Assembly: GCA_011620275.1 (NCBI GenBank)
Contig: WOZK01000012.1
Coordinates: forward strand, 31,665-95,664
DNA length: 64,000 bases
Origin: Candidatus Omnitrophota bacterium
Lineage (GTDB): Bacteria > Omnitrophota > Gorgyraeia > Gygaellales > Profunditerraquicolaceae
Direction: 5' to 3'
A program made the position numbers and the translations under genes. Positions 27,698 through 61,440 of the stretch are shown one piece after another (within the stretch, counting starts at the first letter, position 1; each line of letters starts with the position of its first letter). The notes beneath the pieces are model-generated. The model saw nothing but the letters and a program-made list of their open reading frames with translations, was not told the DNA's origin and did no database searches.

Positions 27698-28120
27698 TTA
27701 AAGATACTTGCGCAGAGATTTCCAGGTCCTCTTGCCGACTTTGCCGTCCGCTTTGAGGTTGTTGGCCCTTTGATAGTCTTTTATGGCTTCTCGTGTCTGC
27801 CTGCCGAACTTTCCGTCGATGCTCCCCGGGTTGTAGCCGGCGTTCTTCAGCGCCTTTTGTATCTGCTTCACGGTCGGCCTGGATTTGACTTCCCTGTTTT
27901 CCTCGCTGTAAACGGCAGAGACCGACTGTTCATGCGCGCACCCAAGCTCATTCCTTAACCCGGCTATCTCCTCATCCTTAGCCTGCACCTGCGCGTTCAT
28001 CGCGGTAAGTTGATTATTAAGCCTTTGTATCTCCATGTCCTTCTGTTTCGCGCCGGTAGTCGCGCACCCCGACAATAATAAAGACACCGCTGTAACGACC
28101 GTCAAGATCATTAACCGCAT
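27698..28120 (-). CDS. lipoprotein with coiled-coil region and C-terminal peptidoglycan-binding (PG_binding_1-like) domain
   Basis: Lipobox LLLSGC; C-terminus [31 protein letters not shown] resembles a PG-binding domain; inserted between hisA and hisF. Confidence 0.6.
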
Positions 28121-40012: not shown

Positions 40013-40690
40013 TTAACCTTTAAAAAGCAGCCTCACCGCCGCCAGCCTTACGCCCTCCGGAGACGATATCTCCAGGAGATAATCTCCCACCGGAACGCAA
40101 TCGAACCCTCCCACTCCTGCCGAAAGGACTTTAGATTCATATTCTCGCCCTCGGCAGAAGAGCGACGCCCGAATATCCCCGGGCGGTAGACTCCCGTGTA
40201 TCCCGCACCGGAGAGAAAAAAAACCGCCGGAACAGCCGGAAACCGTTATTTCAAACCTCAAGCTGTCCCGGACGCTTCTCAACACTGCTTTACCCGTTCC
40301 CTGCGGCCGTCTTCCTCTGGCGAGCCCCTCCAGCGCGTATCTCCTGGCAGATAATCCCCCGGACGCGCGCAAAAAACGGAAAATCCCATCTTTCCAGGAG
40401 AATTCGGCCTCGGGAAGCGCCGCTCCGGAAAAGAGCCCCTTCAACTCGGCTTTTCTTTCCTCTCCTAAAATAGGAGAGGAAAAGTCCTCTTCCGTTGCCG
40501 CGACGGAAACGATCTCCGCGCACCTGCCGCAGTCCAGAATATGCTCCTTTACGTAAGCCTCTTCCGGCTCCGTTAGCCTGCCCTCAAGAAAACAAACCAG
40601 AGTCTCTTCGTCCGGATGCTTGACAGGCATTACTCCGCGCGAAGCCTTCCACCGTTTATAAACTTTTTTTATTAATTGCCGCTCATCCAT
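40013..40690 (-). CDS. zinc-finger (zf-HC2 type) anti-sigma factor
   Basis: N-terminal HILDCGRCAEI H-x3-C-x2-C motif; start at MDERQ (ATG at 40688-40690) 4 nt after the ECF sigma stop; the rest of the ORF-track N-terminus is probably untranslated. Confidence 0.6.
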   Translation of the reverse strand: MDERQLIKKVYKRWKASRGVMPVKHPDEETLVCFLEGRLTEPEEAYVKEHILDCGRCAEIVSVAATEEDFSSPILGEERKAELKGLFSGAALPEAEFSWKDGIFRFLRASGGLSARRYALEGLARGRRPQGTGKAVLRSVRDSLRFEITVSGCSGGFFSLRCGIHGSLPPGDIRASLFCRGREYESKVLSAGVGGFDCVPVGDYLLEISSPEGVRLAAVRLLFKG

Positions 40691-40694
40691 CCTC

Positions 40695-41309
40695 TCACCC
40701 GTCCTTCCGGTCCGCGGCGAGGTCATAACCCCTGCTACGGAAACATTCGCGCAGCCTGCCGAGCACCCGTTTCCTGCGCATATCCACGGCCCCTCTCGAA
40801 CTGCGCAGCAGTTTCTGTAGATGCCCGAGGCGCAGGCCGCGTGCGAAATACAATTCCATAAAATACTTGTCCTCAAGACCAAGTCTTTCTATACAGCTTT
40901 TGAGATGATCTACCATTTCGCTCTCCTGCGCGGAACCCGCGGCGTCCGCCACCGCGTTACCTTGCGTAAAACAATATTCAACTTCCGGGGTCTCCTCCTC
41001 CTGATAAAAATGATGAACTCTGCGCGCGCGGTCTATGGTGGCGTTAAGCGCCACCTGGCGCAGCCAGCTTGCCAGGCTGCAGCCGTTTCTGGCCTGAAAA
41101 GTGCGAAGCTTACGGAAATCGTCTTTCAGCAAAGAAAGGAATATTTCCTGAAGTATATCCTGGGGATTGATCTCGGAAGCGGAAGCGCCTCTGGCCTTCA
41201 AGGCGTTATGGACGAAACTGAAGATAAGCTGGGAATACCTGTCTACGAATTCGCTCCAGGCCGCCTTGTCGCCCATGACGCAGCGCCGGATGAAATCCAT
41301 ATCATCCAT
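40695..41309 (-). CDS. ECF-family RNA polymerase sigma factor (sigma-70 regions 2 and 4)
   Basis: 204 aa; region 2 FVDRYSQLIFSFVH..DILQEIF and region 4 HTH near the C-terminus. Confidence 0.85.
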   Translation of the reverse strand: MDDMDFIRRCVMGDKAAWSEFVDRYSQLIFSFVHNALKARGASASEINPQDILQEIFLSLLKDDFRKLRTFQARNGCSLASWLRQVALNATIDRARRVHHFYQEEETPEVEYCFTQGNAVADAAGSAQESEMVDHLKSCIERLGLEDKYFMELYFARGLRLGHLQKLLRSSRGAVDMRRKRVLGRLRECFRSRGYDLAADRKDG

Positions 41310-41322
41310 ACGGGTATTTTGT

Positions 41323-41700
41323 CTACTTTGATTTGAATTCCCCGGTCCGAAAGTCGAGCGAAAGGATGTAAGGTATCTTAGACTGGGGTTCTCTGCCGCC
41401 CTTTGTGCATCTCTCGGCCACGCCTCTCTGGCCCTCGGAAGAAAGATAATAGCGGAAATAATGAGTCGGGACGCATTTTTCCGGAGCGATCACATCGAGC
41501 TCTTTAACCGACTGCGCGCTCTCTCCGGTGAACATGCTGAGCGCCTGCTGCGCGTTGCGCAGCTGCCCAAGCACGTAACGAGCCTCCGCGACGCGTGATT
41601 TCTCTATGATGTCCCTTAAAGCGGCGAAACCCATGAACAAAAGGGCCAGGATGATCAGGATGGTGATAATGAGTTCGAGAAAAGAAAAACCCAATTTCAT
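41323..41700 (-). CDS. type IV pilin-like/pseudopilin protein with prepilin-type N-terminal cleavage/methylation domain
   Basis: MKLG|FSFLELIITILII: Gly at -1, Phe at +1, Glu at +5, followed by a hydrophobic helix. Confidence 0.75.
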   Translation of the reverse strand: MKLGFSFLELIITILIILALLFMGFAALRDIIEKSRVAEARYVLGQLRNAQQALSMFTGESAQSVKELDVIAPEKCVPTHYFRYYLSSEGQRGVAERCTKGGREPQSKIPYILSLDFRTGEFKSK

Positions 41701-41798: not shown

Positions 41799-43898
41799 TT
41801 ATTTAAAAAAACCGTGCGCGATTATGAACGACGCGAAAACGATGGACACCATGGACATCAGCTTGATTAAAATGTTCAAGCTGGGGCCGGAAGTATCCTT
41901 GAAAGGATCGCCAACGGTATCTCCTACAACCCCCGCTTTGTGGGCTATCGACCCTTTACCGCCGTGATGCCCTTCTTCGATGAACTTCTTGGCATTGTCC
42001 CATGCCCCGCCGGCATTAGCCATCATTACCGCAAGCACGAAACCGGTGACCGTGGCCCCCGTCAATAATCCGACGACCGCTTCCACTCCCACGAAAATAC
42101 CCACCAGTATAGGCGCGGCAATCGCCAGCAGAGAAGCCGGAATCATTTCTTTTTGCGCGGCAGCGGTAGCTATATCCACGCAGCGTGCGTAATCAGGCTT
42201 GGCCTTGCCTTCCAACAGACCGGTTATCTCTTTAAACTGTCGGCGGACTTCCACCACTATCTTGCCCGCAGCGCGCCCCACGGCGCGCATGGTCAAGGCG
42301 CAAAAAAGGAACGGCAGCATCCCGCCCAGAAACAACCCGACCAGGACGTTGGGATTGATAAGACTCAAGGAAAGTTCTTTACCGGCAAGCGCCACCTGGT
42401 CACGGTAAGCCGCGATCAGCGCCAGCGCCGTCAAGGCCGCAGAACCGATGGCAAAACCTTTTCCGGTCGCCGCTGTAGTATTGCCCAAAGCGTCCAGCGC
42501 GTCTGTCCTCTTGCGCACTTCAGGAGGAAGATGAGACATCTCCGCGTTCCCCCCGGCGTTGTCCGCCACCGGCCCGTAAGCGTCGGTAGCAAGCGTGATA
42601 CCGAGCGTCGAAAGCATGCCGACCGCCGATATCCCTATTCCGTAAAGACCGGTCCCGTAATTAGAGGCGCCGCCCGACAGGAAGAAACTCAACATAATCG
42701 CCAAACAAACTATTATTACGGGAACGGCGGTGGACATCATTCCTACCGCCATACCTCCGATAATTACCGTGGCCGGACCGGTCAAGGCCGAGTCGGCGAT
42801 GCCCTGTGTCGGTTTAAAGCTGCTCGAGGTGTAGTACTCGGTGCAAAGACCGATGATCATTCCCGCGATCAAGCCGGCCAGCACGGAATAGTAAACCCCG
42901 ATATGCTGCATACCAAGCGTTCCCTTGACCAGGAAAAAAGAAACCACCGCGACTATAAAGGAACTGACAAAAACGCCTTTTCTCAAGGCCGCCAGAAGCA
43001 CTCGCTGGTTAGCCTCTTCACGGCTCTTGACGAAAAACGTCCCGATGATAGAAGCGACCACGCCCACGGCCGCCATGACCATGGGAACGGTGACCCCGGG
43101 AAGACCGAGACCGGCCGTCACGCCCAGCGCGGAAGTGGCCACGATGGAGCCCACGTATGATTCGTATAGATCGGCTCCCATGCCGGCTACGTCTCCCACG
43201 TTATCCCCCACGTTATCGGCGATTACCGCCGGGTTGCGCGGGTCGTCTTCGGGAATGCCCGCCTCAACCTTACCCACAAGGTCGGCGCCCACGTCTGCGG
43301 CCTTGGTAAATATACCGCCTCCCACGCGCGCGAACAACGCCTGTGAACTGGCGCCCATGCCGAAACAAAGCATAGTAGAAGTAATGGCGGTTATTTTATC
43401 CATGCCGTAAGGAATAGCATGCGTTCCGTAATACCAATTAAGAAAATAATACCAGATGCTCAAATCAAGCAGCCCCAGACCGACTACCACCAGCCCCATG
43501 ACTGCGCCGCTGGAAAAAGCCACGCGCAAGCCGGAATTAAGGCTTTTAGTGGCGGCCTGCGCCGTGCGGTTGGAGGCGTTGGTCGCCACCGTCATGCCGA
43601 TAAAACCGGACAAGCCGGAAAAGAAACCGCCGGTAAGGAAGGCGAACGGCACGAATATCACCAGGTAGTTCTTGAAGGACAGATAAAACAGTATCAGGGA
43701 GACCACGGCAAAGAATATGCCCACTCCGACGTATTGCCTCTTCAGATAAGCGCGCGCGCCTACCTTTACCGCCAGAGCGATCTCCTTCATGCGGTCGTTA
43801 CCCTGGTCCTGTCTCATAATGAAACAAGCCAGATACGCCGCGAACGAAAGCGCCAGGATCGAACCTACGGGTGCCATCCAAAGAAAATCTGAAAACAT
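41799..43898 (-). CDS. hppA: membrane-bound proton-translocating pyrophosphatase (V-type H+-PPase)
   Basis: 699 aa, about 15 TM segments; motifs [19 protein letters not shown] and [21 protein letters not shown]. Confidence 0.93.
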
Positions 43899-44126: not shown

Positions 44127-44459
44127 TTACCGCGTTCTTCTCGCCGCGAAGGTGAAGGCAAGAAAGTAGCTGCGCCAGGCGGCGTCCGTGGAATGGAAGC
44201 TGTTCTCCCCGAAGAAATCGTCCACTATCGCTTCCCGCATCCTGGTAAGCTCCTTGAGACGGGGAAACCCTTTTGCCGCGCTTATGGTGAGGTCTGACAG
44301 TTCCAGGGCGCGCTCGGCCGCGCGGCGCGCATAATCCGGATTATTGCGGGAACGCCAATTAACGGCCCGTTCCACCTCGCTGCCTATATTAGCCATCTGC
44401 TCGGCAAAGGTCAATTCCTGCCAGCGTCCGGCGGCAAGCTCCTTATGCTGACAACTCAT
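44127..44459 (-). CDS. hypothetical all-alpha protein (110 aa), second gene of a coupled pair
   Basis: ATGA overlap with the upstream ORF; has its own terminator downstream; no family confidently recognised (weak resemblance to MazG-like NTP-pyrophosphohydrolase helices). Confidence 0.45.
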   Translation of the reverse strand: MSCQHKELAAGRWQELTFAEQMANIGSEVERAVNWRSRNNPDYARRAAERALELSDLTISAAKGFPRLKELTRMREAIVDDFFGENSFHSTDAAWRSYFLAFTFAARRTR

Positions 44460-44797
44460 CTCTTTATCCTCTCCGCCACTATGGCGGCTATCTCCCTGCG
44501 CAACTTTTCGTCATCAACGCCGCGGCTTTTATTACCCTGTGAAGGGCGAAGATTGATCATCGAATCGAATTCGATAAAAGAATCATCCTGAAGATCGGGA
44601 TAAAGATTGATCCCCCAGAGATATTTTTGCTTAGAACCATCATCGAGCAAAGCGGCTTCCAGATCGGAATGCAAATCAGCATCAACCGCTATCAGCCTGC
44701 GTTCGGTGTCCACGACCGCCTTGACCATATTGCCGAATCCTTCCTCCGCCATCCGCTTCAACTCGTCTATAACCAATGTTTTCGATATTATTCTCAT
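44456..44797 (-). CDS. hypothetical protein (113 aa), first gene of a coupled pair
   Basis: Start overlaps the coaX stop; acidic central region; no recognisable domain. Confidence 0.45.
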   Translation of the reverse strand: MRIISKTLVIDELKRMAEEGFGNMVKAVVDTERRLIAVDADLHSDLEAALLDDGSKQKYLWGINLYPDLQDDSFIEFDSMINLRPSQGNKSRGVDDEKLRREIAAIVAERIKR

Positions 44798-45609
44798 GGC
44801 CTCGCAATATCCTCCATATCTTCCATTCCTTCCCCGTTACTTAAATCGGTCTTTTTATTATAATGCTCATACACCATCCTTAATCCCCGCAGGGTCAGGT
44901 CAGGCTCGATACGGTCGAAAACGCGGGTATAACGGCTGATAAACCGTATGTCGCCGCCGGTGCCGATAACCACGGCCTTGCCTCCAAGCTGTTTCTTCAT
45001 CCCGTCGCAGAGTCCATCGCAGACTGCGGCGGTCCCTCTTACTACGCCGTTCAATATGCCGTCCTGCGTGCGCTTGCCCAGCAATCCGGAAGGAGCCTGC
45101 AGTTTGACTTTCGGCAGCAGAGCCGTCCCCTCGCTCAAAGCCCGTAGCTGCATACCCATCCCGGGAAATATCATACCTCCCAGGTATTCGCCCCGCGCGG
45201 ACACCGCGTCAAAGGTGACAGCCGTCCCCAAGTCAACACAGATCAAAGGCACTCCAAACAGCTTAGCCGCGGCGTAAGCGTTCACCAAACGGTCTTGCCC
45301 GGTTTCTTTCGGCCTCGTATAAAGGTTTTTCAACGGCACTATCACGCCGTTGCTGCCGACCACCATCGGCTTAAACAAAGACAACAGTTTCAGGCAGCGG
45401 CAGAAGGAACGCGTCGCCGCCGGCACCACGCTACAGATCACCACGTCCCCAGCGCCTTTTATGCCGATATTGCGCAGGCTCGCGCCGCAATTCTCCGCGC
45501 GCGCGGTGGGGATATTCACGCGGCGCAGCAGCCTCTCACCGAAAAAAACCCCGGCGGTGATATTGCTGTTGCCGATATCAAACGCGAAAAGCGGCTTCAT
45601 AGTTTTCAT
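44794..45609 (-). CDS. coaX: type III pantothenate kinase
   Basis: FAFDIGNSNITAGVF..DLGTAVTFD acetate/sugar-kinase fold of the CoaX family; ATG overlaps the uvrB TGA (ATGA). Confidence 0.9.
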   Translation of the reverse strand: MKTMKPLFAFDIGNSNITAGVFFGERLLRRVNIPTARAENCGASLRNIGIKGAGDVVICSVVPAATRSFCRCLKLLSLFKPMVVGSNGVIVPLKNLYTRPKETGQDRLVNAYAAAKLFGVPLICVDLGTAVTFDAVSARGEYLGGMIFPGMGMQLRALSEGTALLPKVKLQAPSGLLGKRTQDGILNGVVRGTAAVCDGLCDGMKKQLGGKAVVIGTGGDIRFISRYTRVFDRIEPDLTLRGLRMVYEHYNKKTDLSNGEGMEDMEDIARP

Positions 45610-51485: not shown

Positions 51486-53063
51486 TTAACCGCGGGAGGA
51501 TCTATCCTTAAGCAGTTTATATTCCACGCTGTCCGACAAAGCCTGCCAGGAGGCCTCGATTATGTTCTCTGAAACGCCGATCGTATTCCAGGTATCCCCG
51601 GCGTCCTGCGACTGTATAAGAACGCGCACCTTGGCGGCGGTACCGTCTTTTTCATTAAGCACGCGCACCTTGAAATCGCTCAAGTGCATGCGCGCAAGAT
51701 CGGGATAGAAATCCCGAAGCGCCTTGCGCAGGGCGTTATCCAGGGCGTTGACCGGGCCGTCGCCCTCGGCTGCGGTATACTCCCGGGAACCCTTGACTTT
51801 TATCTTTATAATCGCCTCGGTGGTTATTTTTCCATCCTGCCTGCGCTCCACCACCACCCTGAAACCCTCCAACTCGAAGAATTTCTCGTGTTTCTTTATT
51901 TCCCTCTGCAGCAGCAGCTCGAAAGAGGCTTCCGCGGCCTCGAACTGGTATCCTTTATGCTCCAGTTCCTGGACCAGTTTAAGTAACTTCTTCGTCTTGG
52001 GGTCGTTTTTGGTCAAGTCCATTTCCAGGTCGCGGGCGCGCAGCAATATCCCGGTCTTTCCCCCGAGCTCCGAAAGCAGCATCCTGCGCCTGTTCCCGAC
52101 GAGCGCCGGATCGATGTGCTCGTAAGTAGCGCAGTTTTTCATCACCGCGTTAATGTGCACCCCGCCCTTGTGCGCGAACGCCGAGATTCCGCTGTAAGGC
52201 TGGTCGTTCCTGATCGTCATATTGCTGATCTCGCTGACAAAATGAGACAATCTGGTCAGTCCCTTCAATTTATCGGCGGGAAGACAGCGCACTCCCATTT
52301 TCAACTGCAGATTAGCGATAATCGGGATAAGATCGGCGTTGCCGCAGCGCTCGCCGTAACCGTTTATAGTCCCCTGCGCCATAACCGCTCCCGCTTCCAC
52401 CGCGGCCAAGGAATTGGCCACCGCCAACCCCCCGTCATTATGACAATGTATTCCGATATCGGCCTTCAACAGTGATTTCACTTCCTTAACCACGCGCAAG
52501 ACCTCCGAAGAGAGCGTTCCACCGTTGGTATCGCAGAGCACCAGCACGGAGGCGCCGGCATCTCTGGCGGTCAACAGGCACTGCAATGCGTAATCGCGGT
52601 TGGCTTTGTAGGCGTCAAAGAAATGTTCCGCGTCATAAAAAACGGCCAAGCCTTTGCCGCGCAGAAAAGACACCGAATCCCTGATCATGGATAGATTCTC
52701 TTCCGGCGTTGTCTTCAGCACGTCTCTGATGTGCAGGTCCCAGGTCTTACCGAACAGCGCGGCGCAGGAAACACCGCTCTTGAGGAACGCCTTGAGGTTG
52801 GCGTCCTGCGATGCCTTTATGCCCGGCCGGCGGGTGGAGCCGAAAGCCACCAGTTCCGCGCAGGCAAGTCTGCGTTTAGACATCTTCAAAAAAAACTCCA
52901 TGTCCTTGGGATTGGACCCCGGCCAGCCTCCTTCGATATAATGGATGCCCGCCTTATCCAGTTCCATGGCGATGGCGAGTTTATCAGAAACGGTGTAGGA
53001 AATACCTTCCCCCTGAGACCCATCCCGCAAAGTAGTGTCGTAAACAGCCACGCTGTTCTTCAT
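51486..53063 (-). CDS. citramalate synthase / 2-isopropylmalate synthase family enzyme (CimA-like)
   Basis: 525 aa; DRE-TIM YDTTLRDGSQ N-terminus and C-terminal LeuA-dimer regulatory domain; long CimA-type size; lies in a threonine/isoleucine gene block. Confidence 0.65.
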   Translation of the reverse strand: MKNSVAVYDTTLRDGSQGEGISYTVSDKLAIAMELDKAGIHYIEGGWPGSNPKDMEFFLKMSKRRLACAELVAFGSTRRPGIKASQDANLKAFLKSGVSCAALFGKTWDLHIRDVLKTTPEENLSMIRDSVSFLRGKGLAVFYDAEHFFDAYKANRDYALQCLLTARDAGASVLVLCDTNGGTLSSEVLRVVKEVKSLLKADIGIHCHNDGGLAVANSLAAVEAGAVMAQGTINGYGERCGNADLIPIIANLQLKMGVRCLPADKLKGLTRLSHFVSEISNMTIRNDQPYSGISAFAHKGGVHINAVMKNCATYEHIDPALVGNRRRMLLSELGGKTGILLRARDLEMDLTKNDPKTKKLLKLVQELEHKGYQFEAAEASFELLLQREIKKHEKFFELEGFRVVVERRQDGKITTEAIIKIKVKGSREYTAAEGDGPVNALDNALRKALRDFYPDLARMHLSDFKVRVLNEKDGTAAKVRVLIQSQDAGDTWNTIGVSENIIEASWQALSDSVEYKLLKDRSSRG

Positions 53064-53071
53064 AATCGCCT

Positions 53072-54298
53072 CTATTTCTTTTTGCCCATGCCGAATTTAT
53101 CGTGCAGTATGCGCACGGCTTCTTCAGCCGATTTCTTCTTTATGATACAGGAGATACTAATGTCCGAGGTGGAAATCATATCTATATTTATATTGTTGGC
53201 TGCCAAAGCGGCGAACATCATAGCCGCCACGCCGGGATGTGATTTCATTCCCACGCCTATCACCGAGATGCGCGCAATATCATCATCCTGCAGTATCTCC
53301 CCCGCCCCCACGTCCGCCGCCGCCTCTTTAGCGAGTTTAACCGCCCTGGCCAAGTCGGACTTGGCGACGGTGAAAGAGATATCGGTTTTACGCAGGTGGC
53401 TGACGTTCTGAACGATCATGTCTACGTTTATGGATTTCTCGGCCATAAGGCTGAATATCTTCGCGGCGATGCCGGGCTGGTCCTGCAATCCGCAGACCGT
53501 TACCTTAGCTTCATTCTTGTTCAAGGTTATTCCGCTGACCATCAACTCTTCCATATCTTTTACCTCCCTGATTATCATCGTCCCCGGCTTGTCCGAAAAA
53601 GAAGACCGGACATGTATCGGCACGTCGAATTTCTTGGCAACTTCGATCGATCTTGCCTGCATCACCTGCGCGCCCAAAGAGGCCATTTCCAGCATCTCGT
53701 CATACGTGATGGTGGAAAGCTTTCTCGCCGACGGCTCGACCCTGGGATCGGTAGTGAATATGCCTTCCACGTCAGTGTATATCTCGCACTCATCGGCCTT
53801 CAACTCTTTGGCCAGCGCCACCGCCGTCAAGTCCGAACCGCCGCGGCCCAAAGTGGTAATATCCTGATCCGGGGTGACCCCCTGGAACCCGGCCACGATC
53901 ACGATCCTGCCCTTTTCCAGCTCCGCCTTTACTTTCGCGGGATTTATTTTCAGGATACGGGCCCTGGTATGGCAGCGGTCTGTGATAATACCCACCTGCA
54001 GGCCGGTCATCGATATCGCCTCATAACCCAGTTTGTGTATGGCCATTGCCAGCAATGCCACGGAGATTTGCTCGCCGGTGGACAGAAGCATATCCATCTC
54101 CCTCTCCGAAGGATTGCTGTTTATCCTGGCCGCCAGTTCTATCAATTCATCGGTGGTATCGCCCAACGCGGACACCACCACTATCAGGTTATCACCGTTC
54201 TTTTTGTAGGCGGCCACCCGCTTGGCGACGTTCTGTATCCTCTCCACATTGGCGACCGAAGAGCCGCCAAACTTCTGCACTACCAAACGCCCTTTCAT
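53072..54298 (-). CDS. lysC: aspartate kinase
   Basis: 408 aa; VQKFGGSSV kinase N-terminus and two C-terminal ACT domains. Confidence 0.93.
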   Translation of the reverse strand: MKGRLVVQKFGGSSVANVERIQNVAKRVAAYKKNGDNLIVVVSALGDTTDELIELAARINSNPSEREMDMLLSTGEQISVALLAMAIHKLGYEAISMTGLQVGIITDRCHTRARILKINPAKVKAELEKGRIVIVAGFQGVTPDQDITTLGRGGSDLTAVALAKELKADECEIYTDVEGIFTTDPRVEPSARKLSTITYDEMLEMASLGAQVMQARSIEVAKKFDVPIHVRSSFSDKPGTMIIREVKDMEELMVSGITLNKNEAKVTVCGLQDQPGIAAKIFSLMAEKSINVDMIVQNVSHLRKTDISFTVAKSDLARAVKLAKEAAADVGAGEILQDDDIARISVIGVGMKSHPGVAAMMFAALAANNINIDMISTSDISISCIIKKKSAEEAVRILHDKFGMGKKK

Positions 54299-55525
54299 CT
54301 AAACCTTCCCTCCGTTTATGAAATAAGCCATCAATTCGTGGCCTTTATCGAAAACAAGTCCGCTTTTGCGCGCCTCGCTCTCGCTGTAAACGGCGGCACT
54401 CCCCGGATGAATATCCGGCCCGTATATTCCGAAACATACCGGGTCGGCGGAGTGGCTGCGCAGCGCCACCGGTGTGGGGTGGTCGGGCATCACCAGTATG
54501 CGTAGTCCCTGCTGTTTTTTTGCCGCGTCAAGAAACCTACGCACCACCGCGTGATCAAAACGCTCGATGGCGGTTATCTTCTGCCGCAGGTCGCCGTTAT
54601 GTCCCGCCTCGTCAGGGGCCTCCACGTGAACGAAAACGAAATCGTGCTTCTCCAGAGACTTGACCCCGGCCTCAGCCTTACCTTCGTAATTAGTATCGTA
54701 ATACCCGGTGGCTCCCGGCACGTCTATCACGTCCAGGCCGATGATGCGCCCCAGACCTTTTAGAAGGTCCACGGCGGAGATAACGCTGCCGCTGATCCCG
54801 AACATATCGCTGAAACGCGGCATGCGCGGTTTCACACCCTGCCCCCAGAGCCAGATCATATTGGCGGGGTTCTCTTTCAAATCTATGCGCACCTGGTTGA
54901 TCTCGTGCGTCTCCAGCAGGGATCGGGAATCTTTCATCAGCTTGATCAGATGCTGCGCCCCTCCGCCTTTAGGCAGATTGCGGGAAACGGTCTGCCCGGA
55001 GATATCGTGAGGCGGTTTACACTCGGTCTCGTGCAACCCCAAAGCCGTTCCTCCGGAAGCAAGCATTAAATGCCGATAGCTGACGCCCGGATAGAACCTA
55101 AAATTCCCGCCGCCGATGCCGCGGTCTACGAACTTTATAAGCTGTTCCGCTTCTTTGGAACTGATATGCCCGGCGCTGTAATCCTCCAAGATGTCCCCGG
55201 AGACGGTAATCAGGTTACAGCGAAAAGCAACATCCCCTTCTTTCATCTCCACGCCGAGATTGGCCGCTTCCAGCGGGCCGCGGCCGGCATAATACTCCGC
55301 GGGATTATATCCCAGTATGGACATATTGGCCACGTCCGAACCGGCGGCCATTCTGTCCGGGATGGTCCTCGCGACACCAAGCATTCCTTTTCTGGCGAGA
55401 AAATCCATCGCCGGGGTGTCGGCCGTCTCGATCGGCGTCTTGCCTCCGAGTTCCTGCAAAGGGTAATCGGCCATGCCGTCGGCGACCAGGACGGCGTATT
55501 TTAATCTAACTTTTTCAGCAGGCAT
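54299..55525 (-). CDS. cofactor-independent phosphoglycerate mutase (archaeal-type, ApgM) family protein; candidate non-orthologous homoserine kinase
   Basis: 408 aa; metalloenzyme fold YAVLVADGMADYP..; embedded in a thr cluster (lysC-X-coaB-thrC-hom) that has no canonical thrB. Confidence 0.6.
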   Translation of the reverse strand: MPAEKVRLKYAVLVADGMADYPLQELGGKTPIETADTPAMDFLARKGMLGVARTIPDRMAAGSDVANMSILGYNPAEYYAGRGPLEAANLGVEMKEGDVAFRCNLITVSGDILEDYSAGHISSKEAEQLIKFVDRGIGGGNFRFYPGVSYRHLMLASGGTALGLHETECKPPHDISGQTVSRNLPKGGGAQHLIKLMKDSRSLLETHEINQVRIDLKENPANMIWLWGQGVKPRMPRFSDMFGISGSVISAVDLLKGLGRIIGLDVIDVPGATGYYDTNYEGKAEAGVKSLEKHDFVFVHVEAPDEAGHNGDLRQKITAIERFDHAVVRRFLDAAKKQQGLRILVMPDHPTPVALRSHSADPVCFGIYGPDIHPGSAAVYSESEARKSGLVFDKGHELMAYFINGGKV

Positions 55526-56198
55526 CCCTGGACAACCCTTCCGCTATGCAGCGCACCAGATGCACGGCCAGGCTCTTTTTGGAACAGAAAGGGCCGCTTA
55601 ATTTGCCGTCTTTAACGATGTAAGCCTCATAAAGATTGTTACGAATGGTATTGGCAACCACGATCTCCGCCCCGCAACGCTCGGCCAGATGCACGGCTTC
55701 TTTATGCAGTTCTTTTGCCGCAGCCTGGGGCTCGAATTTGAAACCCACGAGCATAAGCGCAGGATCCTGCTTCTTTATGGAATCTATAATCTTGGGAGTG
55801 GCAGCCAGCTTCAAAGCCAGATTCTTCCTGCCCGAGGGGATTTTCCTACGGTGCGCGTGCCTCGGCTGGTAATCGGAGACGGCCGCCGAGTGTATAACCA
55901 CGTCGTATTTGCGGCGGACCAGCTCGCGCGAGAGCTTTTCCCGCAGGTCGGAAAAGAACTTGAAAGACTCGGTATACTTACTGTTAACCAGTCTTGACTC
56001 CAGCAGAGACGGCCCCAACAGCAGACGCACGGACGCCCCCATCTTCTTGACTTCCTCGGCCAGCAGCAGACCGGTTTCACCGGTAGCGGTATTGCTGATC
56101 ACCCGCACGTCATCGATAGGCACCCACGTCGGCCCTGCGGTGATCAACACTTTCTTATCCTTTAACCCGTTCGGTCGCTTCTTGGTTTTGGCTTTCAT
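55515..56198 (-). CDS. coaB: phosphopantothenate--cysteine ligase (CoaB domain only)
   Basis: 227 aa; KVLITAGPTWVPIDDVRVISNTATGETG DFP/CoaB signature; no CoaC flavoprotein domain. Confidence 0.8.
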   Translation of the reverse strand: MKAKTKKRPNGLKDKKVLITAGPTWVPIDDVRVISNTATGETGLLLAEEVKKMGASVRLLLGPSLLESRLVNSKYTESFKFFSDLREKLSRELVRRKYDVVIHSAAVSDYQPRHAHRRKIPSGRKNLALKLAATPKIIDSIKKQDPALMLVGFKFEPQAAAKELHKEAVHLAERCGAEIVVANTIRNNLYEAYIVKDGKLSGPFCSKKSLAVHLVRCIAEGLSRDAC

Positions 56199-56271: not shown

Positions 56272-57333
56272 TTAAAATCCCATCTTCCCCAGTATCTCCT
56301 TCATCTGAGCGTCAACCGTCAACGGTTTTGCCACGCTTTTGATTGCCCGGTCAGGATCTTTCAGGCCATGGCCGGTCAGGATGCAGACGATACGCAATTT
56401 CTCCTTGCCGGAGAAAAATCCGGCTGCGGAAAGTTTCAAAAGCCCGGCAACGGAGGCGCAGGAGGCCGGCTCGGCGAACACCCCGTCTTTTTCCGCCAGC
56501 AGTTTATACGCCTCCAGTATCTCTTCATCAGAGACCATATCTATCAACCCGCCGGACTCGTCCCTGGCCTGTTCGGCCTGCTTCCAGCTGGCGGGATTAC
56601 CGATGCGTATGGCAGTAGCGATCGTCTCGGGATTCTCCACTATCCTCCCCCTAACTATCGGAGCCGCCCCTTCGGCCTGGAAACCCAGCAACCCGGGCAG
56701 GGAAGTTATTTTCCCTTCCTGGAGATACTGCTTGTAGCCTTTCCAGTAAGCGGTGATATTGCCGGCGTTCCCGACCGGCATCACCTGGAAATCAGGGGCG
56801 CCTTCCAAAGCGTCGCAAATCTCGAAACTCCCGGTTTTCTGCCCTTCAATACGGAAAGGGTTCAGGGAATTCACCAGGGTTATCGGGTATTTCTCCGCGG
56901 TTTCGCGCACCAGGCGCAGCGCGTCGTCGAAATTGCCGCGCACCTGCAAAACCAGGGCGCCGTGTATCAAAGCCTGGCTCAATTTCCCCATGGCGATGTG
57001 GCCGTCCGGTATCAGCACGACGCATTTTATCCCGGCGCGCGCCGCGTAAGCGGCGGCAGAAGCGGAAGTATTGCCGGTGGACGCGCAGATCACGGCGCGG
57101 GAACCTTCCTCGCAGGCCTTGGAAATGGCCATGGTCATGCCGCGGTCTTTGAAGGAACCGGTGGGATTAAGCCCTTCGTATTTCAAATAGACCAAGCACC
57201 CGGCTCCCAGTCTGGAACTCAAGTAAGGCGAGAAAATCAGCGGCGTGTTCCCCTCGTTTAGAGTAACCACCGGAGTGGCCCCGCTTACCGGCAGATATTT
57301 CCTGTATTTCTCGATCACCCCGCGGTAAAACAT
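56272..57333 (-). CDS. thrC: threonine synthase
   Basis: 353 aa; PLP-lysine motif TGSFKDRG. Confidence 0.93.
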   Translation of the reverse strand: MFYRGVIEKYRKYLPVSGATPVVTLNEGNTPLIFSPYLSSRLGAGCLVYLKYEGLNPTGSFKDRGMTMAISKACEEGSRAVICASTGNTSASAAAYAARAGIKCVVLIPDGHIAMGKLSQALIHGALVLQVRGNFDDALRLVRETAEKYPITLVNSLNPFRIEGQKTGSFEICDALEGAPDFQVMPVGNAGNITAYWKGYKQYLQEGKITSLPGLLGFQAEGAAPIVRGRIVENPETIATAIRIGNPASWKQAEQARDESGGLIDMVSDEEILEAYKLLAEKDGVFAEPASCASVAGLLKLSAAGFFSGKEKLRIVCILTGHGLKDPDRAIKSVAKPLTVDAQMKEILGKMGF

Positions 57334-57338
57334 GATTT

Positions 57339-58640
57339 TTATATCTCCTCTATGCGGATAGCCACCGATTTTTCCTTTATCACATCAAGCTTGTCTATCA
57401 CGGTCAGCGCGGAACGCAATTTCTTCTCCAGCGCGTCGTGTACCACCATTACAATCGGCACGGCCTGGCCGCCGCGCGCCGGTTTCTGCGTGACCGACTC
57501 TATGCTGATCCCGGACTTCGCAAACACCCCGGATATCTTTGCCAGCACGCCCGGTTTATCGTCGGCCGTCACTCTTATGTAATACCGGCTTTCTATCTCG
57601 TCTATGCTGCGCAGACGTTTCACCTCGGCGTCGGGAGTAATATTAAGCGTAGGCCTGAACAAACCGGCCTTCATATCCTGCGCCAGGTCCACCAGGTCGG
57701 AGACCACGGCAGACGCCGCGGAGAACTGGCCGGCTCCGGGGCCGTAAAAAAGCAATTCCCCGGCCAGGTCGCTGGAGACGAAGATGGCGTTGAAGACGCC
57801 GTTCACGGAAGCGAGCAAATGCCCGGAACTGATCAAAGTCGGATGTACCCGCACCTCCAACGCGTCGCCCTCCTTCTTGGCTATCGCCAACAGTTTGATC
57901 TCGAAATCGAGTTCTTTGGCATAATTGATGTCCTGCAGGGATACCCTGGAAATCCCTTCCACATAAACTTCCCCGATGCGCACCATCCTTCCGAAACAAA
58001 GATAAGTGAGTATGACAAGCTTATGCGCGGAATCCATTCCTTCGATGTCGAGCGTGGGGTCTTTCTCGGCGAAACCGCGCTTCTGCGCCTCCTTGAGCGC
58101 CTCGGAGAAGCCGCAGTTCTCCGCCGACATACGGGAAAGCACGAAATTGGTGGTGCCGTTGACTATACCGAACACCCCTGCGAAGTTATTGGCGACCAGA
58201 CCTTCTCTCAACGCCTTTATGATCGGAATGCCTGCCCCGACCGAGGCCTCGAAATAAACGCTCTTTCCCCTGTCCTGGGCAAGCGTAAAGATATCCGTCC
58301 CGTGGTGAGCAAGCAGAGCTTTATTGGCAGTGACCACGTTCTTGCCTTTTTTAAGCGCTTCGGTCACGAATTCACGCGCCGGGTTTATGCCGCCGATCAG
58401 CTCCACCACGATGTCTATTTGGGGATCTTCAAGGATATCGGAGACATTGACGGTCAACAGCGACTTATCCAAAGAAACGCCGCGCTTGGAAGAGATATCC
58501 TTGTCGCAGACTTTCTTGAGCTCAATCTCCATACCGGTCTTTTCGCGCAGCATCGCTTTCTTGTCGCGCAGTATCTTTATCATGCCGGCACCGACGTTGC
58601 CGAACCCTATCAACCCTATGTTTATCTTCCTGGCGCTCAT
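57339..58640 (-). CDS. hom: homoserine dehydrogenase
   Basis: 433 aa; GLIGFGNVG NAD(P)-binding motif, catalytic domain and C-terminal ACT domain. Confidence 0.93.
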   Translation of the reverse strand: MSARKINIGLIGFGNVGAGMIKILRDKKAMLREKTGMEIELKKVCDKDISSKRGVSLDKSLLTVNVSDILEDPQIDIVVELIGGINPAREFVTEALKKGKNVVTANKALLAHHGTDIFTLAQDRGKSVYFEASVGAGIPIIKALREGLVANNFAGVFGIVNGTTNFVLSRMSAENCGFSEALKEAQKRGFAEKDPTLDIEGMDSAHKLVILTYLCFGRMVRIGEVYVEGISRVSLQDINYAKELDFEIKLLAIAKKEGDALEVRVHPTLISSGHLLASVNGVFNAIFVSSDLAGELLFYGPGAGQFSAASAVVSDLVDLAQDMKAGLFRPTLNITPDAEVKRLRSIDEIESRYYIRVTADDKPGVLAKISGVFAKSGISIESVTQKPARGGQAVPIVMVVHDALEKKLRSALTVIDKLDVIKEKSVAIRIEEI

Positions 58641-58666: not shown

Positions 58667-59026
58667 TTACTTGGCGTTCTTAAGATGATATTCCACCGTC
58701 CCGCCGATCACCCTGCGATGGTTCTCGTCAACCGCGACGAACTGGATACGAGTATCGTAAATCATGTTCTTGCTAATCTCCCTCGACTCCACCACTTTAC
58801 CCATCAAAAGGATCGGATGCGCGTCGAAAGGAAGTCTTATCTCCAGGGCCAGGTTAGTGCCCGGCTCAAAAGAGCGGTTGGTGGTCAAAAGCATGCCTCC
58901 CAGGCTGAGGTTCTTAGTCTGGGAAATGTCCACGTTGTTGGCTTCATCGAAGACCCTGTAAGAGACCACGAAACGACCGCTTGCTCTGGGGTACTTACGC
59001 TTTTCTTCTCCCTTATACTGCGTCAT
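58667..59026 (-). CDS. PilZ domain protein (c-di-GMP receptor family)
   Basis: Start at MTQYKGEEKRKYPR (ATG at 59024-59026) with strong RBS AAGGGAGG; PilZ motifs RKYPR and DISQTKNLSLGG. Confidence 0.75.
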   Translation of the reverse strand: MTQYKGEEKRKYPRASGRFVVSYRVFDEANNVDISQTKNLSLGGMLLTTNRSFEPGTNLALEIRLPFDAHPILLMGKVVESREISKNMIYDTRIQFVAVDENHRRVIGGTVEYHLKNAK

Positions 59027-59251
59027 ATCGCCTCCCTTGAAATCTCCGCTGTTAGGCTTTATTATTCTGGATGTGTTCGCCGGACGGTATCGGTATTCTA
59101 CCTTAGGACATGCCAAAGCCCCGATTGTAAGTCTCAAGATGCGCATTTATAAACTACACAAAATTGTATTATATACGCGCGCTTAAATAATGTAAATAGA
59201 AAGTTAAATAAGGGAAAGCTGCGAAATGGAAGAAAAACGGCGGGGCAGCCG

Positions 59252-60253
59252 TCACTCTTTCTTCATTTGGCGGGTCATCAGATCCTTTACCGCTTTTACC
59301 GGCGACTTGCCTTTATACAGAACGCGGTATACTTCCCCGCAAATAGGCATATCCACCTTGTAACGCAGGCTCAATCCGTGCGCCGATTCGGCTGTCGGCA
59401 CTCCTTCGGCTATCATCAGCCCCATCTTGCGCCTGATATCGGCAAGCGTCCTCCCCATACCGATCTGTTCGCCCACGAACCTGTTGCGGCTGTCGCGGCT
59501 GATACAGGTAGTAACCAGGTCTCCCAGTCCGCTGATGCCGCTGAACGTCCTGGGTTTTGCCGACATGGCCGCGCCAAGCCTGGTAATCTCCGCCAGACCG
59601 CGGGAAAGCAGTGCCGCTTTTGTGTTTGAGCCGAAACCAAGCCCATCGGAGATACCGCAGGCTATGGCTATCACGTTCTTCAGGCTGCCGCCCAGTTCCA
59701 CGCCTGTCACGTCGTCGTTACCGTAAATACGGAAGCTTTCGCTGATAAACAAAGATTGCAGTTCTTCGCGGACGTCCTTTCTGCCGGAAGCGATCACGGC
59801 CGTCGTCGGTATCCCTAAAGCGACCTCTCTGGCGATGGTCGGCCCGGAAAGCACGGCCACTCGTATCCTGCCCAGTTCTTCGCTTACGACCTCGGACATC
59901 CTTTTCAGGGAGCCGGCCTCTATGCCTTTGACCACGCTGAGATAATCCGCCCCGCGCGGCAGGCGGCACCCTTTCATTTTGCGCAATACTCCGCGCAAGT
60001 ATTGTGAAGGAACGGCCAGGACAATAACATCGCTGTCCGAACAGGCTTTCTCCAAGTCGGAAGTTATGAATATCTTACCGGGGATCTTGAAGCCGGGCAG
60101 GAATTTCTTGTTCTCGCGGTATCTGTTCAGATAAACCGCATACTCCGGGAAAGCGCTCCAGATAGAGACGTCGACATCCTTCCGGGAAAGCAGGATGGCA
60201 AGCGTCGTTCCCCAACCGCCGTCCCCTATAAACGCTATCTTCTTTCTTTTCAT
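59252..60253 (-). CDS. gpsA: NAD(P)H-dependent glycerol-3-phosphate dehydrogenase
   Basis: 333 aa; IAFIGDGGWGT Rossmann motif and GpsA family C-terminus. Confidence 0.93.
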   Translation of the reverse strand: MKRKKIAFIGDGGWGTTLAILLSRKDVDVSIWSAFPEYAVYLNRYRENKKFLPGFKIPGKIFITSDLEKACSDSDVIVLAVPSQYLRGVLRKMKGCRLPRGADYLSVVKGIEAGSLKRMSEVVSEELGRIRVAVLSGPTIAREVALGIPTTAVIASGRKDVREELQSLFISESFRIYGNDDVTGVELGGSLKNVIAIACGISDGLGFGSNTKAALLSRGLAEITRLGAAMSAKPRTFSGISGLGDLVTTCISRDSRNRFVGEQIGMGRTLADIRRKMGLMIAEGVPTAESAHGLSLRYKVDMPICGEVYRVLYKGKSPVKAVKDLMTRQMKKE

Positions 60254-60256
60254 ACC

Positions 60257-60649
60257 TTAAACCTGTTCCGGCGGAAAGACTATCCTGGGGACCAAGACGT
60301 GTCCTTCTTCTCTCGTGATAAATCTCAAACCGACCTTATGCAACCCGTCCTCGTCCCGTCCCTCCGCCCTTACCACGCAGCCGATTATCCCGCCCTGATA
60401 CATGAAACATCGTTTCTCCATGTCGTGACAAAAATCAAGGGTGTCCTTGTCGAAAGAAAGCCAAAGGATGTCGTCCATCTGAACGTCGTCTTTTATACGG
60501 CAAAAAATACCGCTTTGACTGATATCCGCGGTATAACCTTCCAGAAGCTTATCTATAGTCTCGCGCTTACAGATCTTGTAGGCCAGCGGAGTCACGTATT
60601 CCACCCTGGCGTATTCTCTTCTCTCTTTACCGAATATGCCGTCGCTCAT
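60257..60649 (-). CDS. PilZ domain protein (c-di-GMP receptor family)
   Basis: 130 aa; RREYAR and DISQSG PilZ motifs; RBS GAGGAA. Confidence 0.7.
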   Translation of the reverse strand: MSDGIFGKERREYARVEYVTPLAYKICKRETIDKLLEGYTADISQSGIFCRIKDDVQMDDILWLSFDKDTLDFCHDMEKRCFMYQGGIIGCVVRAEGRDEDGLHKVGLRFITREEGHVLVPRIVFPPEQV

Positions 60650-60663
60650 TAAAATTCCTCGGT

Positions 60664-61440
60664 CTATTTTATCTCCAGCCCGGTTTTATTGGTACGCAGT
60701 TTGGCCAGGTCCCAACTGTATTCATACAAATGCAGTCCCTTGCTCGCCGCGATAATCTCACCGTCCTCCACGCCTATCTCCTGAGCCATATACTGCTTTA
60801 CCAGTTCCAGACCTCCCAGGTTGGAAGGAAAGCCTCCCCAGAGATCCCAGGAACGGAAATAAAGTATGAAATGCAGTTTGCCGTAGCGCACGCGCGTGTC
60901 TATCAGGCGCAGGCACGGCGGATCGTTAAGCTTTATGTCCGACGGCATACCTATCTCCATCACCGCCTGGTTCGTACCCGGGCCTTTCTCCTTATAGATG
61001 CGTATGACCTCCTCGATCTGGTTGACGTCAAGAGGTATCTCCTTGAACATTCCGCTGCCGTCCTGTTTCACCTTCACCCGCGGCGCGACCAGCCTTTCTC
61101 CGTAAGTATAATCCTCCGTCTCGGTCTTGGCGCCGGTAAGCAGATATCCCAGGTATCCCTGAACGTAATCCATATCTGTGGGAGCCGGAATGCTCATGCC
61201 TTCCGGAATGATCGGTATAATCTGATGAGATGGTTTTTTGATCTTGATTACCGCGAAATCGAATTCCAGGCGCCTCTGCCCTTCGTAGCTGCCGCGGGTG
61301 ATTGTATAGACATGCCCTTTATCCAGTATCTTTGACAGACACTGGAACCAGGCGTCGTCCACGTCGAAGGCATCGATAAAAACAGGTTCCAGAGATTCTC
61401 TTTCCGGCATAGGCTGAGGTACTTGAAAAATCCCCTTCAA
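60664..61440 (-). CDS. divergent thymidylate synthase (ThyA)-family protein, archaeal-like
   Basis: 258 aa; ThyA-like catalytic region PPCLRLIDTRVRYGKLHFILYFRSWDLWGGFPSNL (compare PPCH..GKL..Q.YQRS.D..LG.PFN) but otherwise distant from bacterial ThyA. Confidence 0.55.
   Translation of the reverse strand: MKGIFQVPQPMPERESLEPVFIDAFDVDDAWFQCLSKILDKGHVYTITRGSYEGQRRLEFDFAVIKIKKPSHQIIPIIPEGMSIPAPTDMDYVQGYLGYLLTGAKTETEDYTYGERLVAPRVKVKQDGSGMFKEIPLDVNQIEEVIRIYKEKGPGTNQAVMEIGMPSDIKLNDPPCLRLIDTRVRYGKLHFILYFRSWDLWGGFPSNLGGLELVKQYMAQEIGVEDGEIIAASKGLHLYEYSWDLAKLRTNKTGLEIK

Follow-up and report, generated by a model that had tools for sequence, protein, structure and literature searches.

A candidate HomK-type homoserine kinase and a standalone CoaB-like ligase in a thrB-less threonine cluster of Omnitrophota

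In a 64,000-nt stretch of DNA from a Candidatus Omnitrophota bacterium (the window), the threonine gene cluster lacks thrB, and sequence comparison supports the identification of an ApgM-family gene in this cluster (54299..55525) as a candidate homK, encoding a homoserine kinase that would replace ThrB. We consider it likely that this assignment holds jointly with a second one, namely that the adjoining CoaB-like gene encodes a housekeeping CoA ligase kept at its position by ancient gene order. The substitution of HomK (also named ThrB2) for ThrB has already been published and hence is not new. The nearest published MAG is that of Ca. Undivivens industriae, and the source bacterium of the window is very close to it.

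The aspartate-family genes, as seen in the ORF list and annotated with Pfam and NCBIfam models, form a row on the minus strand in the transcription order pilZ, hom, thrC, CoaB-like, ApgM-like, lysC, cimA and then valS. The PilZ-domain gene (58667..59146; PF07238) may be the one with which the transcription unit begins, and a PilZ gene precedes hom in most of the related Omnitrophota loci. It is followed by hom (57339..58640), encoding a homoserine dehydrogenase that carries an ACT domain at its C-terminus (NF004976, 531 bits; Pfam Homoserine_dh, NAD_binding_3 and ACT), and thrC (56272..57333), encoding threonine synthase (TIGR00260, 323 bits with a cutoff of 167; PALP domain). The CoaB-like gene (55515..56198) encodes a protein of 227 aa that comprises the DFP C-terminal domain alone (PF04127, 134 bits), the flavoprotein domain being absent, and the product of the next gene, homK, is an ApgM-family metalloenzyme of 408 aa assigned to ThrB2 / TIGR02535 (543 bits; Pfam PhosphMutase and Metalloenzyme). 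Next come lysC (53072..54298), for a monofunctional aspartate kinase with two ACT domains (NF005155, 601 bits), and cimA (51486..53063), for citramalate synthase (TIGR00977, 728 bits with a cutoff of 450), which provides a threonine-independent route to isoleucine. The order cimA-lysC-ApgM-coaB-thrC-hom given in the initial annotation was therefore borne out, with all of the ORFs present on the minus strand.

The same annotation had described overlaps of a few nucleotides between the ApgM-family gene and both of its neighbors. This is correct for the CoaB-like gene, with which homK shares 11 nt (55515-55525), but not for lysC, where the last base of the homK stop codon (54299) is directly followed by the lysC ATG (from 54298), such that the two genes abut with zero overlap. 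The spacer between thrC and the CoaB-like gene is 73 nt long and carries its own GGGAG ribosome-binding site. The best promoter-like site, at 59196-59168 (11/12 matches), and a terminator-like hairpin after gpsA, at 59253-59236, are consensus matches only. No riboswitch or leader RNA was found in the cluster; scanning the entire window with Rfam at gathering thresholds gave only six tRNAs.

The suggestion that the ApgM-family gene is a non-orthologous homoserine kinase is supported by its profile score, by a specificity residue, by its hom and thrC neighbors and by published complementation with members of the family. With 543.0 bits, the product is above the trusted cutoff (446.3 bits) of TIGR02535, a model named 'proposed homoserine kinase'. 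Alignment to the solved ApgM enzymes 2ZKT and 3IDD places the catalytic residue at Ser63, the metal ligands at D16, D305, H309, D348, H349 and H358, and Glu302 opposite the Lys of both structures. Glu302 is invariant in 71/71 Omnitrophota orthologues, as are the catalytic Ser and the metal ligands in 70-71 of them. Glu versus Lys at this site is the published specificity position that distinguishes HomK from PGM, and an E. coli thrB::kan strain was rescued by two family members, BT2402 of Bacteroides thetaiotaomicron and DET_RS08350 of Dehalococcoides mccartyi; the rescue was weak, with OD gains of 0.14-0.25 (GapMind 2026 preprint). Genetic and comparative support for such a HomK had also been published earlier. 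Glu302 corresponds to E299 of BT2402 as judged by numbering offsets (D9/S56 versus D16/S63; D346/H347 versus D348/H349) rather than by direct alignment. For the validated DET_RS08350, the comparison used the gBlock sequence from the preprint supplement, which spans about 124 codons, and HomK is 44% identical to these first 124 residues.

Like the known HomK/ThrB2 proteins, the Omnitrophota protein is a two-domain ApgM-type metalloenzyme with the catalytic Ser, the metal ligands and the specificity Glu, and its gene is linked to hom and thrC in what would be a ThrB-less type of genome. The gene accompanies hom, thrC and (CoaB-like) in the window, as it does in related loci that have enough flanking sequence. 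Unlike the known members, it comes from the phylum Omnitrophota, and the operon additionally contains lysC, cimA and the CoaB-like gene.

The top-scoring NCBIfam model for the homK product was, however, NF003242, 'cofactor-independent phosphoglycerate mutase' (557 bits), and the cutoff of TIGR00306 apgM was also passed (522 versus 320 bits). Together with the similarity to Pyrococcus horikoshii ApgM 2ZKT (224 bits), these scores would fit a glycolytic cofactor-independent phosphoglycerate mutase, with the homoserine kinase encoded elsewhere or missing. Since both models were passed alongside TIGR02535, the PGM models fail to separate the two functions. We regard the glycolytic assignment as highly improbable, given that Glu302 stands where true ApgM enzymes have Lys, that the TIGR02535 cutoff is passed and that the gene keeps its place between thrC and lysC across the phylum. 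The archaeal ApgM enzymes (2ZKT, 3IDD; TIGR00306) are similar in fold, catalytic Ser and metal sites, scoring 206-224 bits with HomK, but carry the Lys in place of Glu302, three positions before the DxxxH metal motif, and the gene context in the window is that of threonine synthesis, not glycolysis.

The gene content of the window and of other genomes also bears on this point. The initial annotation had noted the lack of a GHMP-type thrB in the cluster, and this holds for the window, where no GHMP kinase and no canonical homoserine kinase (ThrB, APH-type ThrB2 or ThrH) was present among the Pfam-scanned ORFs. Two other Omnitrophota genomes (58 and 231), whose KO lists include hom, thrC and lysC, likewise show none of the thrB-type KOs K00872, K02204 and K02203. 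In the PGM columns of Table S5 of the Omnitrophota survey, Ca. Undivivens industriae has a separate gpmA (K01834, one copy) in addition to one copy of K15635, and most of the Velamenicoccia without gpmA list at least two copies of K15635, as if one were HomK and the other ApgM. Both patterns argue against a glycolytic role for the gene in the threonine cluster.

For HomK, we propose a mechanism modeled on alkaline phosphatase and iPGM, in which Ser63 would take the phosphoryl group with the help of two bound metal ions and the group would then be passed to the hydroxyl of homoserine, whose amino group Glu302 would hold. The product would be O-phosphohomoserine, which ThrC would turn into threonine. 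A possible functional analogue is ThrH of Pseudomonas aeruginosa, a phosphoserine:homoserine phosphotransferase of the HAD family that yields O-phosphohomoserine from a non-ATP donor. ThrH is not homologous to HomK and is cited as a precedent by the GapMind authors (GapMind 2026 preprint).

We are confident that the CoaB-like protein is predicted to have the CoaB (DFP C-terminal) fold. Its best PDB sequence match was the CoaB 5INT, and the AlphaFold model (pLDDT 90.3) matched 2GK4, 6TH2 and 1U7Z (CoaB of S. pneumoniae, M. smegmatis and E. coli) in Foldseek with E-values of 1e-16 to 1e-17 and TM scores of 0.78-0.80. Across 25 diverse family members, N35, D108 and K118 do not vary; they align with the catalytic Asn (N210), the ribose-binding Asp (D279) and the catalytic Lys (K289) of E. 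coli CoaB. The protein thus resembles the standalone CoaB of Streptococcus and Enterococcus (2GK4; TIGR02114) and the CoaB domain of CoaBC (E. coli 1U7Z, M. smegmatis 6TH2, 5INT) in fold, with a TM score of about 0.8, and in the GPT...ISN..(S/T)G, AAVSDY and K-I-x-S/K motifs, with the Asn, Asp and Lys kept. It differs from them in that identity in the structural alignment is 22-28%, in that Trp (GPTW) replaces their Arg, Ser or Thr, and in that the gene is embedded behind thrC with no adjoining coaC.

In the profile scan, the protein fell under every NCBIfam cutoff for CoaB and CoaBC equivalogs, with 120.1 bits for TIGR00521 (cutoff 219.7), of which only the CoaB half can match, 109.9 bits for NF005231 (cutoff 265) and 79.3 bits for TIGR02114 (cutoff 217.2). 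Sequence signatures place it in what appears to be a standalone subfamily specific to Omnitrophota, marked by GPTW(V)xID and K(I/L)xS, in which Trp replaces the Arg of GPTRE and K-x-S replaces KIKK. Similarity grades smoothly into the fused CoaBC proteins, the first fused match having 38% identity and 110 bits; roughly 150 standalone clusters came up in this comparison. The Glu of the CoaB 'ATGETG' motif was also considered as a diagnostic change and was rejected, as the subfamily shows free variation at this site (E, K, Q, R, T, A). We suggest that the protein would act as a CoaB-type nucleotide-dependent ligase.

A CoaB-only gene inside an amino-acid operon had been described as atypical in the initial annotation. 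The gene is truly free of a CoaC domain, but its location proved to be usual for the phylum, as it is a constant member of a syntenic block in which unrelated housekeeping genes are also found. This block, recurring among the 83 Omnitrophota loci compared, consists of thyA-like, pilZ, gpsA, pilZ, hom, thrC, coaB-like, homK, lysC, cimA, valS and nadC. Beyond nadC, coaX was reached in only 5 of the 83 loci, flank length being limiting. In many loci, one or the other flank of homK carries inserted, unrelated genes (NTase-like, TPM-domain, LemA, CstA). Given the housekeeping genes in the block and the insertions beside homK, the position of the CoaB-like gene argues only weakly for a function in the threonine pathway, and we propose that the gene would lie behind thrC through ancient, phylum-wide gene order and not through a part in that pathway.

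One feature of the block counts against this housekeeping interpretation. The CoaB-like gene follows thrC in 71/71 related loci, the stop codon of thrC often overlapping its start codon, and this never-broken junction is tighter than plain historical linkage requires. The adjacency, and the 11-nt overlap with homK in the window, could instead reflect a new threonine-linked role for the ligase, either in supplying or recycling the phosphoryl donor of HomK or in ligating an aspartate-family intermediate, whereby the gene would be locked behind thrC. The Omnitrophota-specific subfamily with its own signature residues, the scores under the CoaB equivalog cutoffs and the weakness of heterologous HomK complementation (GapMind 2026 preprint) are in keeping with such a role. 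We nevertheless think it unlikely. The Bacteroides and Dehalococcoides HomK proteins work in E. coli without such a partner (GapMind 2026 preprint), and the published Bacteroidetes thrB2 operon is described as having three genes (thrB2 with thrC and asd-hom), none of them CoaB-like. Within the Omnitrophota, unrelated genes split the CoaB-like gene from homK in 17/54 loci, all CoaB catalytic residues are kept, and the presence of valS, nadC, gpsA and the thyA-like gene in the same block indicates that the linkage is not pathway-specific. Additionally, the linkage is restricted to one phylum and so counts as a single evolutionary event.

The CoA pathway context fits the housekeeping interpretation. 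The window encodes a type III pantothenate kinase, coaX (44794..45609, minus strand; PF03309, 168 bits), 10 kb from the CoaB-like gene, so that this syntenic block also codes for CoA synthesis ahead of the CoaB step. Genomes 58 and 231 have coaX, coaD and coaE in their KO lists and no other CoaB-type KO, leaving the CoaB-like gene as the one candidate in sight for a step that is essential. It is therefore probably the gene for the phosphopantothenate-cysteine ligase of the cell.

A plain CoaB role leaves the decarboxylation step without a gene, because no CoaC was found. No CoaC (PF02441) turned up in the window or in 86 related loci, where tblastn with an E. coli CoaC sequence and with the CoaC half of P0264, a fused protein, as queries gave nothing below E = 0.2. 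Among the small ORFs downstream of coaX, Pfam detected DUF5674 alone, and genomes 58 and 231 list neither the coaC nor the coaBC KO (K01598, K13038). A database search with the CoaC half of P0264 gave five matches that were inspected, none of which was attributable to Omnitrophota. Three were split coaC-coaB pairs, with CoaB of the canonical GPTRE/KLKK type in the two that were checked; one appears to be archaeal, with a GHMP kinase and a phosphopantothenate synthetase as neighbors; and one came from a genome with 60% GC.

These negative results, the listing of coaX, coaD and coaE without K01598 or K13038 and the subfamily-specific changes in the active-site region could be taken to indicate a CoA route without a CoaC homologue, in which an unrelated enzyme carries out the decarboxylation or an amine other than cysteine is ligated. 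We find such a route doubtful, since the absence is drawn from the threshold-scored KO lists of two MAG/SAG genomes and from about 20 kb of one syntenic region per genome. The simplest explanation is a CoaC encoded at a separate site in the genome. CoaC is common as a standalone gene in other lineages, and the CoA pathway is encoded, according to the authors of the survey of Omnitrophota, by more than 75% of 204 species-representative genomes. Likewise, we give little credence to the broader proposal that the CoaB-type ligase is not a plain PPCS and is either coupled to ThrC and HomK, for example with 4'-phosphopantothenate or another phospho-metabolite as the HomK donor, or part of a CoA route free of a CoaC homologue. 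If true, a non-PPCS role would explain both the fixed place behind thrC in every genome examined and the fact that no CoaC was seen.

Given that the top NCBIfam model names HomK a phosphoglycerate mutase, automated pathway calls for Omnitrophota will show a gap in threonine synthesis and will count, in error, one glycolytic mutase too many. Recognition of the gene as homK, as supported here, would close this gap in the annotation of threonine synthesis for a whole uncultured phylum.

Open reading frame calls with Pfam and NCBIfam assignments placed all genes of the threonine region on the minus strand. In transcription order these are gpsA (59252-60253), a PilZ-domain gene detected with Pfam (58667-59146), hom (57339-58640), thrC (56272-57333; TIGR00260, 323 bits), a CoaB-like gene (55515-56198) whose 227 aa product consists of the DFP C-terminal (CoaB) domain alone, a gene for a 408 aa ApgM-family metalloenzyme (54299-55525), lysC (53072-54298), cimA (51486-53063; TIGR00977, 728 bits) and valS. 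The gaps between hom and thrC and between lysC and cimA are 5 and 8 nt, respectively, while 73 nt separate thrC from the CoaB-like gene, which has a GGGAG site of its own. The initial annotation had the ApgM-like gene overlapping both of its neighbors; it does overlap the CoaB-like gene (by 11 nt) but abuts lysC with neither gap nor overlap. No GHMP kinase, flavoprotein (CoaC) domain or second phosphoglycerate mutase was detected among the window ORFs scanned. Apart from the lysC overlap, this gene row and these absences confirm the threonine cluster lacking thrB, with the ORFs and domains as first described.

With 11/12 matches, the strongest promoter-like site in the region is located ahead of the PilZ gene that precedes hom, and a terminator-like hairpin follows gpsA, both being consensus matches only. 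This PilZ gene may be the first of the threonine/lysC/cimA transcription unit. A second PilZ-domain gene (60257-60649, minus strand) is found on the other side of gpsA, and two such genes, of the cyclic-di-GMP receptor type, flank gpsA ahead of hom in most Omnitrophota loci compared. An Rfam scan of the window returned six tRNAs and nothing else. Elsewhere in the window, also on the minus strand, a 140 aa PG_binding_1 (peptidoglycan-binding) protein is encoded within the histidine operon, between two His_biosynth (HisA/HisF-type) genes (27698-28120), and a membrane H+-pyrophosphatase gene (41799-43898) lies upstream of a gene for a 701 aa CHAT-protease-domain protein with many TPR repeats (37898-40003). 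The two ORFs between the latter genes (40013-40882 and 41323-41700) gave no significant Pfam family match.

The ApgM-like protein scores 543 bits with TIGR02535, the "proposed homoserine kinase" model (cutoff 446.3). It is above threshold for the more general apgM model too, as well as for NF003242, a model carrying the name phosphoglycerate mutase. A homoserine kinase role for this family was first suggested by the TIGRFAMs curators, and Bacteroides thetaiotaomicron mutated in BT2402 requires threonine. The name ThrB2 was given by Ashniev and colleagues on the basis of complementary occurrence with thrB. The GapMind 2026 preprint, which named the family HomK, reported rescue of E. coli thrB::kan by BT2402 and by the diverged DET_RS08350, each, and noted that E299 of BT2402 is Glu where true phosphoglycerate mutases have Lys; it assigned no phosphoryl donor. 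In the literature, the role is well past mere proposal. In the window protein, Glu302 is three residues ahead of the DxxxH metal motif and aligned opposite Lys in the archaeal ApgM structures 2ZKT and 3IDD. Numbering offsets (D9/S56 vs D16/S63 and D346/H347 vs D348/H349) suggest that it is the equivalent of BT2402 E299. Residues D16, S63, E302, D305, H309, D348, H349 and H358 were invariant in an alignment of 70-71 Omnitrophota orthologues, and residues 1-124 are 44% identical to DET_RS08350. On sequence grounds, the gene is predicted to be HomK/ThrB2, a phylum-level new member of a described, experimentally supported family. The suggestion that it substitutes for homoserine kinase was therefore right, given the TIGR02535 score, Glu302 and the published complementation by family members, although the idea is not novel. 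The top-scoring NCBIfam model for the protein is NF003242, an "equivalog" for cofactor-independent phosphoglycerate mutase (557 bits), in conflict with TIGR02535, and pipelines that use the top NCBIfam model are likely to go on labelling the protein a glycolytic mutase.

KEGG orthologues are tabulated per genome in the supplement of the Omnitrophota survey by Seymour and colleagues (PMC10066038). In the accessible portion of its Table S5, Candidatus Undivivens industriae (genome 380; Velamenicoccia, Gygaellales, Profunditerraquicolaceae; genome size ~1.5-1.6 Mb) has one K01834 (gpmA) and one K15635 (apgM-type). Most Velamenicoccia without K01834 have two or more K15635 copies, and those with gpmA mostly have one, with several exceptions; in this portion of the table, the pattern looks like one glycolytic ApgM plus one HomK. 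Hom, thrC, lysC and K15635 are present in the accessible KO lists of Omnitrophota genomes 58 and 231, and none of K00872, K02204 and K02203 is. We infer that thrB is probably missing from the source genome itself.

Candidatus Omnitrophota accounts for all of the nearest relatives of the CoaB-like protein. A scan of GTDB species genomes gave 209 stretches encoding a relative, the top one (97% identity) in MAG AS06rmzACSIP_339 of U. industriae; among the best 80, all named records are Omnitrophota, the remainder being labelled generically as MAGs (uncultured Planctomycetales, bacterium). The protein matches Pfam DFP with 134 bits and falls under every NCBIfam CoaB/CoaBC cutoff, as is expected for the bifunctional CoaBC model, only half of which can match. 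Among PDB sequences it is closest to the CoaB domain 5INT, and its AlphaFold model (pLDDT 90.3) superposed on S. pneumoniae, M. smegmatis and E. coli CoaB with TM ~0.8. Conservation among 25 aligned family members (~50% identity) peaks in the CoaB motifs, and N35, D108 and K118, which we take to correspond to E. coli CoaB N210, D279 and K289, are invariant. When 1.8 billion cluster representatives were searched exhaustively without a profile, nearly all of the best ~150 matches were standalone proteins of ~210-230 aa, with scores declining smoothly from 200 to 108 bits and the first fused CoaBC at 110 bits (38% identity). The standalone group has the signatures GPTW(V)xID and K(I/L)xS, and the residue after its phosphate-loop (S/T)G is freely variable. 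Given these motif, fold and subfamily data, the gene encodes a CoaB-type ligase that is intact, neither decayed nor obviously retooled, and belongs to a lineage-specific subfamily.

The related loci share a recurrent block of thyA-like, pilZ, gpsA, pilZ, hom, thrC, coaB-like, homK, lysC, cimA, valS and nadC genes; coaX, past nadC, was reached in five loci only. The most conserved gene of the block (median 82% aa identity in Omnitrophota vs 50-75% for its neighbors) is the thyA-like ORF of 258 aa (60664-61440, minus strand, TTG start), with a weak partial ThyA match (PF00303, 44 bits, residues 138-250). The CoaB-like gene directly follows thrC in all 71 loci with enough upstream sequence, making the standalone CoaB, flagged initially as atypical, a real and conserved Omnitrophota peculiarity. 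Among 55 loci, homK directly follows the CoaB-like gene in 37, is set apart by 0.6-3.9 kb in 17 and is absent from the flank in one. In the seven loci inspected (L012, L013, L016, L018, L020, L025 and L027), this insert encodes nucleotidyltransferase-like, TPM-domain (with a Gly-rich tail) and LemA proteins; a CstA-like permease of ~530 aa separates homK from lysC where that gap was inspected. Since the block joins unrelated housekeeping functions within a single phylum, the linkage counts as roughly one evolutionary event and carries little functional information.

The window also contains coaX, for type III pantothenate kinase (44794-45609, minus strand). Two genes follow it on the same strand with overlapping stop and start codons, the first for a DUF5674 protein (44456-44797) and the second a 110 aa ORF that has no assignment (44127-44459). 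The accessible KO lists of genomes 58 and 231 include coaX, coaD and coaE, and hold no CoaB-type KO and neither K01598 nor K13038. The CoaB-like gene is thus the sole visible candidate for an essential step, and we consider it fairly probable that it encodes the housekeeping phosphopantothenate-cysteine ligase. According to the Omnitrophota survey, the CoA pathway is encoded by >75% of 204 species-representative Omnitrophota genomes (PMC10066038). CoaC was found neither in the window nor in the 86 related loci. A CoaC-domain database search returned many standalone proteins, and none of five inspected was tied to Omnitrophota: three are in split coaC-coaB pairs (with canonical CoaB in both pairs checked), one is from an apparent archaeon and one from a high-GC genome. 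A separate CoaC gene elsewhere in the genome would be the simplest answer.

Coupling of the CoaB-like protein to HomK, or a CoaC-less route, would be moderately interesting if true. The thrC/CoaB-like junction, unbroken and often overlapping in related loci, is tighter than we can account for. However, unlike the Omnitrophota row, the published Bacteroidetes thrB2 operon is described as comprising three genes (with thrC and asd-hom) and no CoaB-like gene, and HomK of two other phyla works alone in E. coli. We regard both proposals as improbable; the CoaB-like gene most likely encodes a standard enzyme of CoA synthesis and merely has an unusual location.
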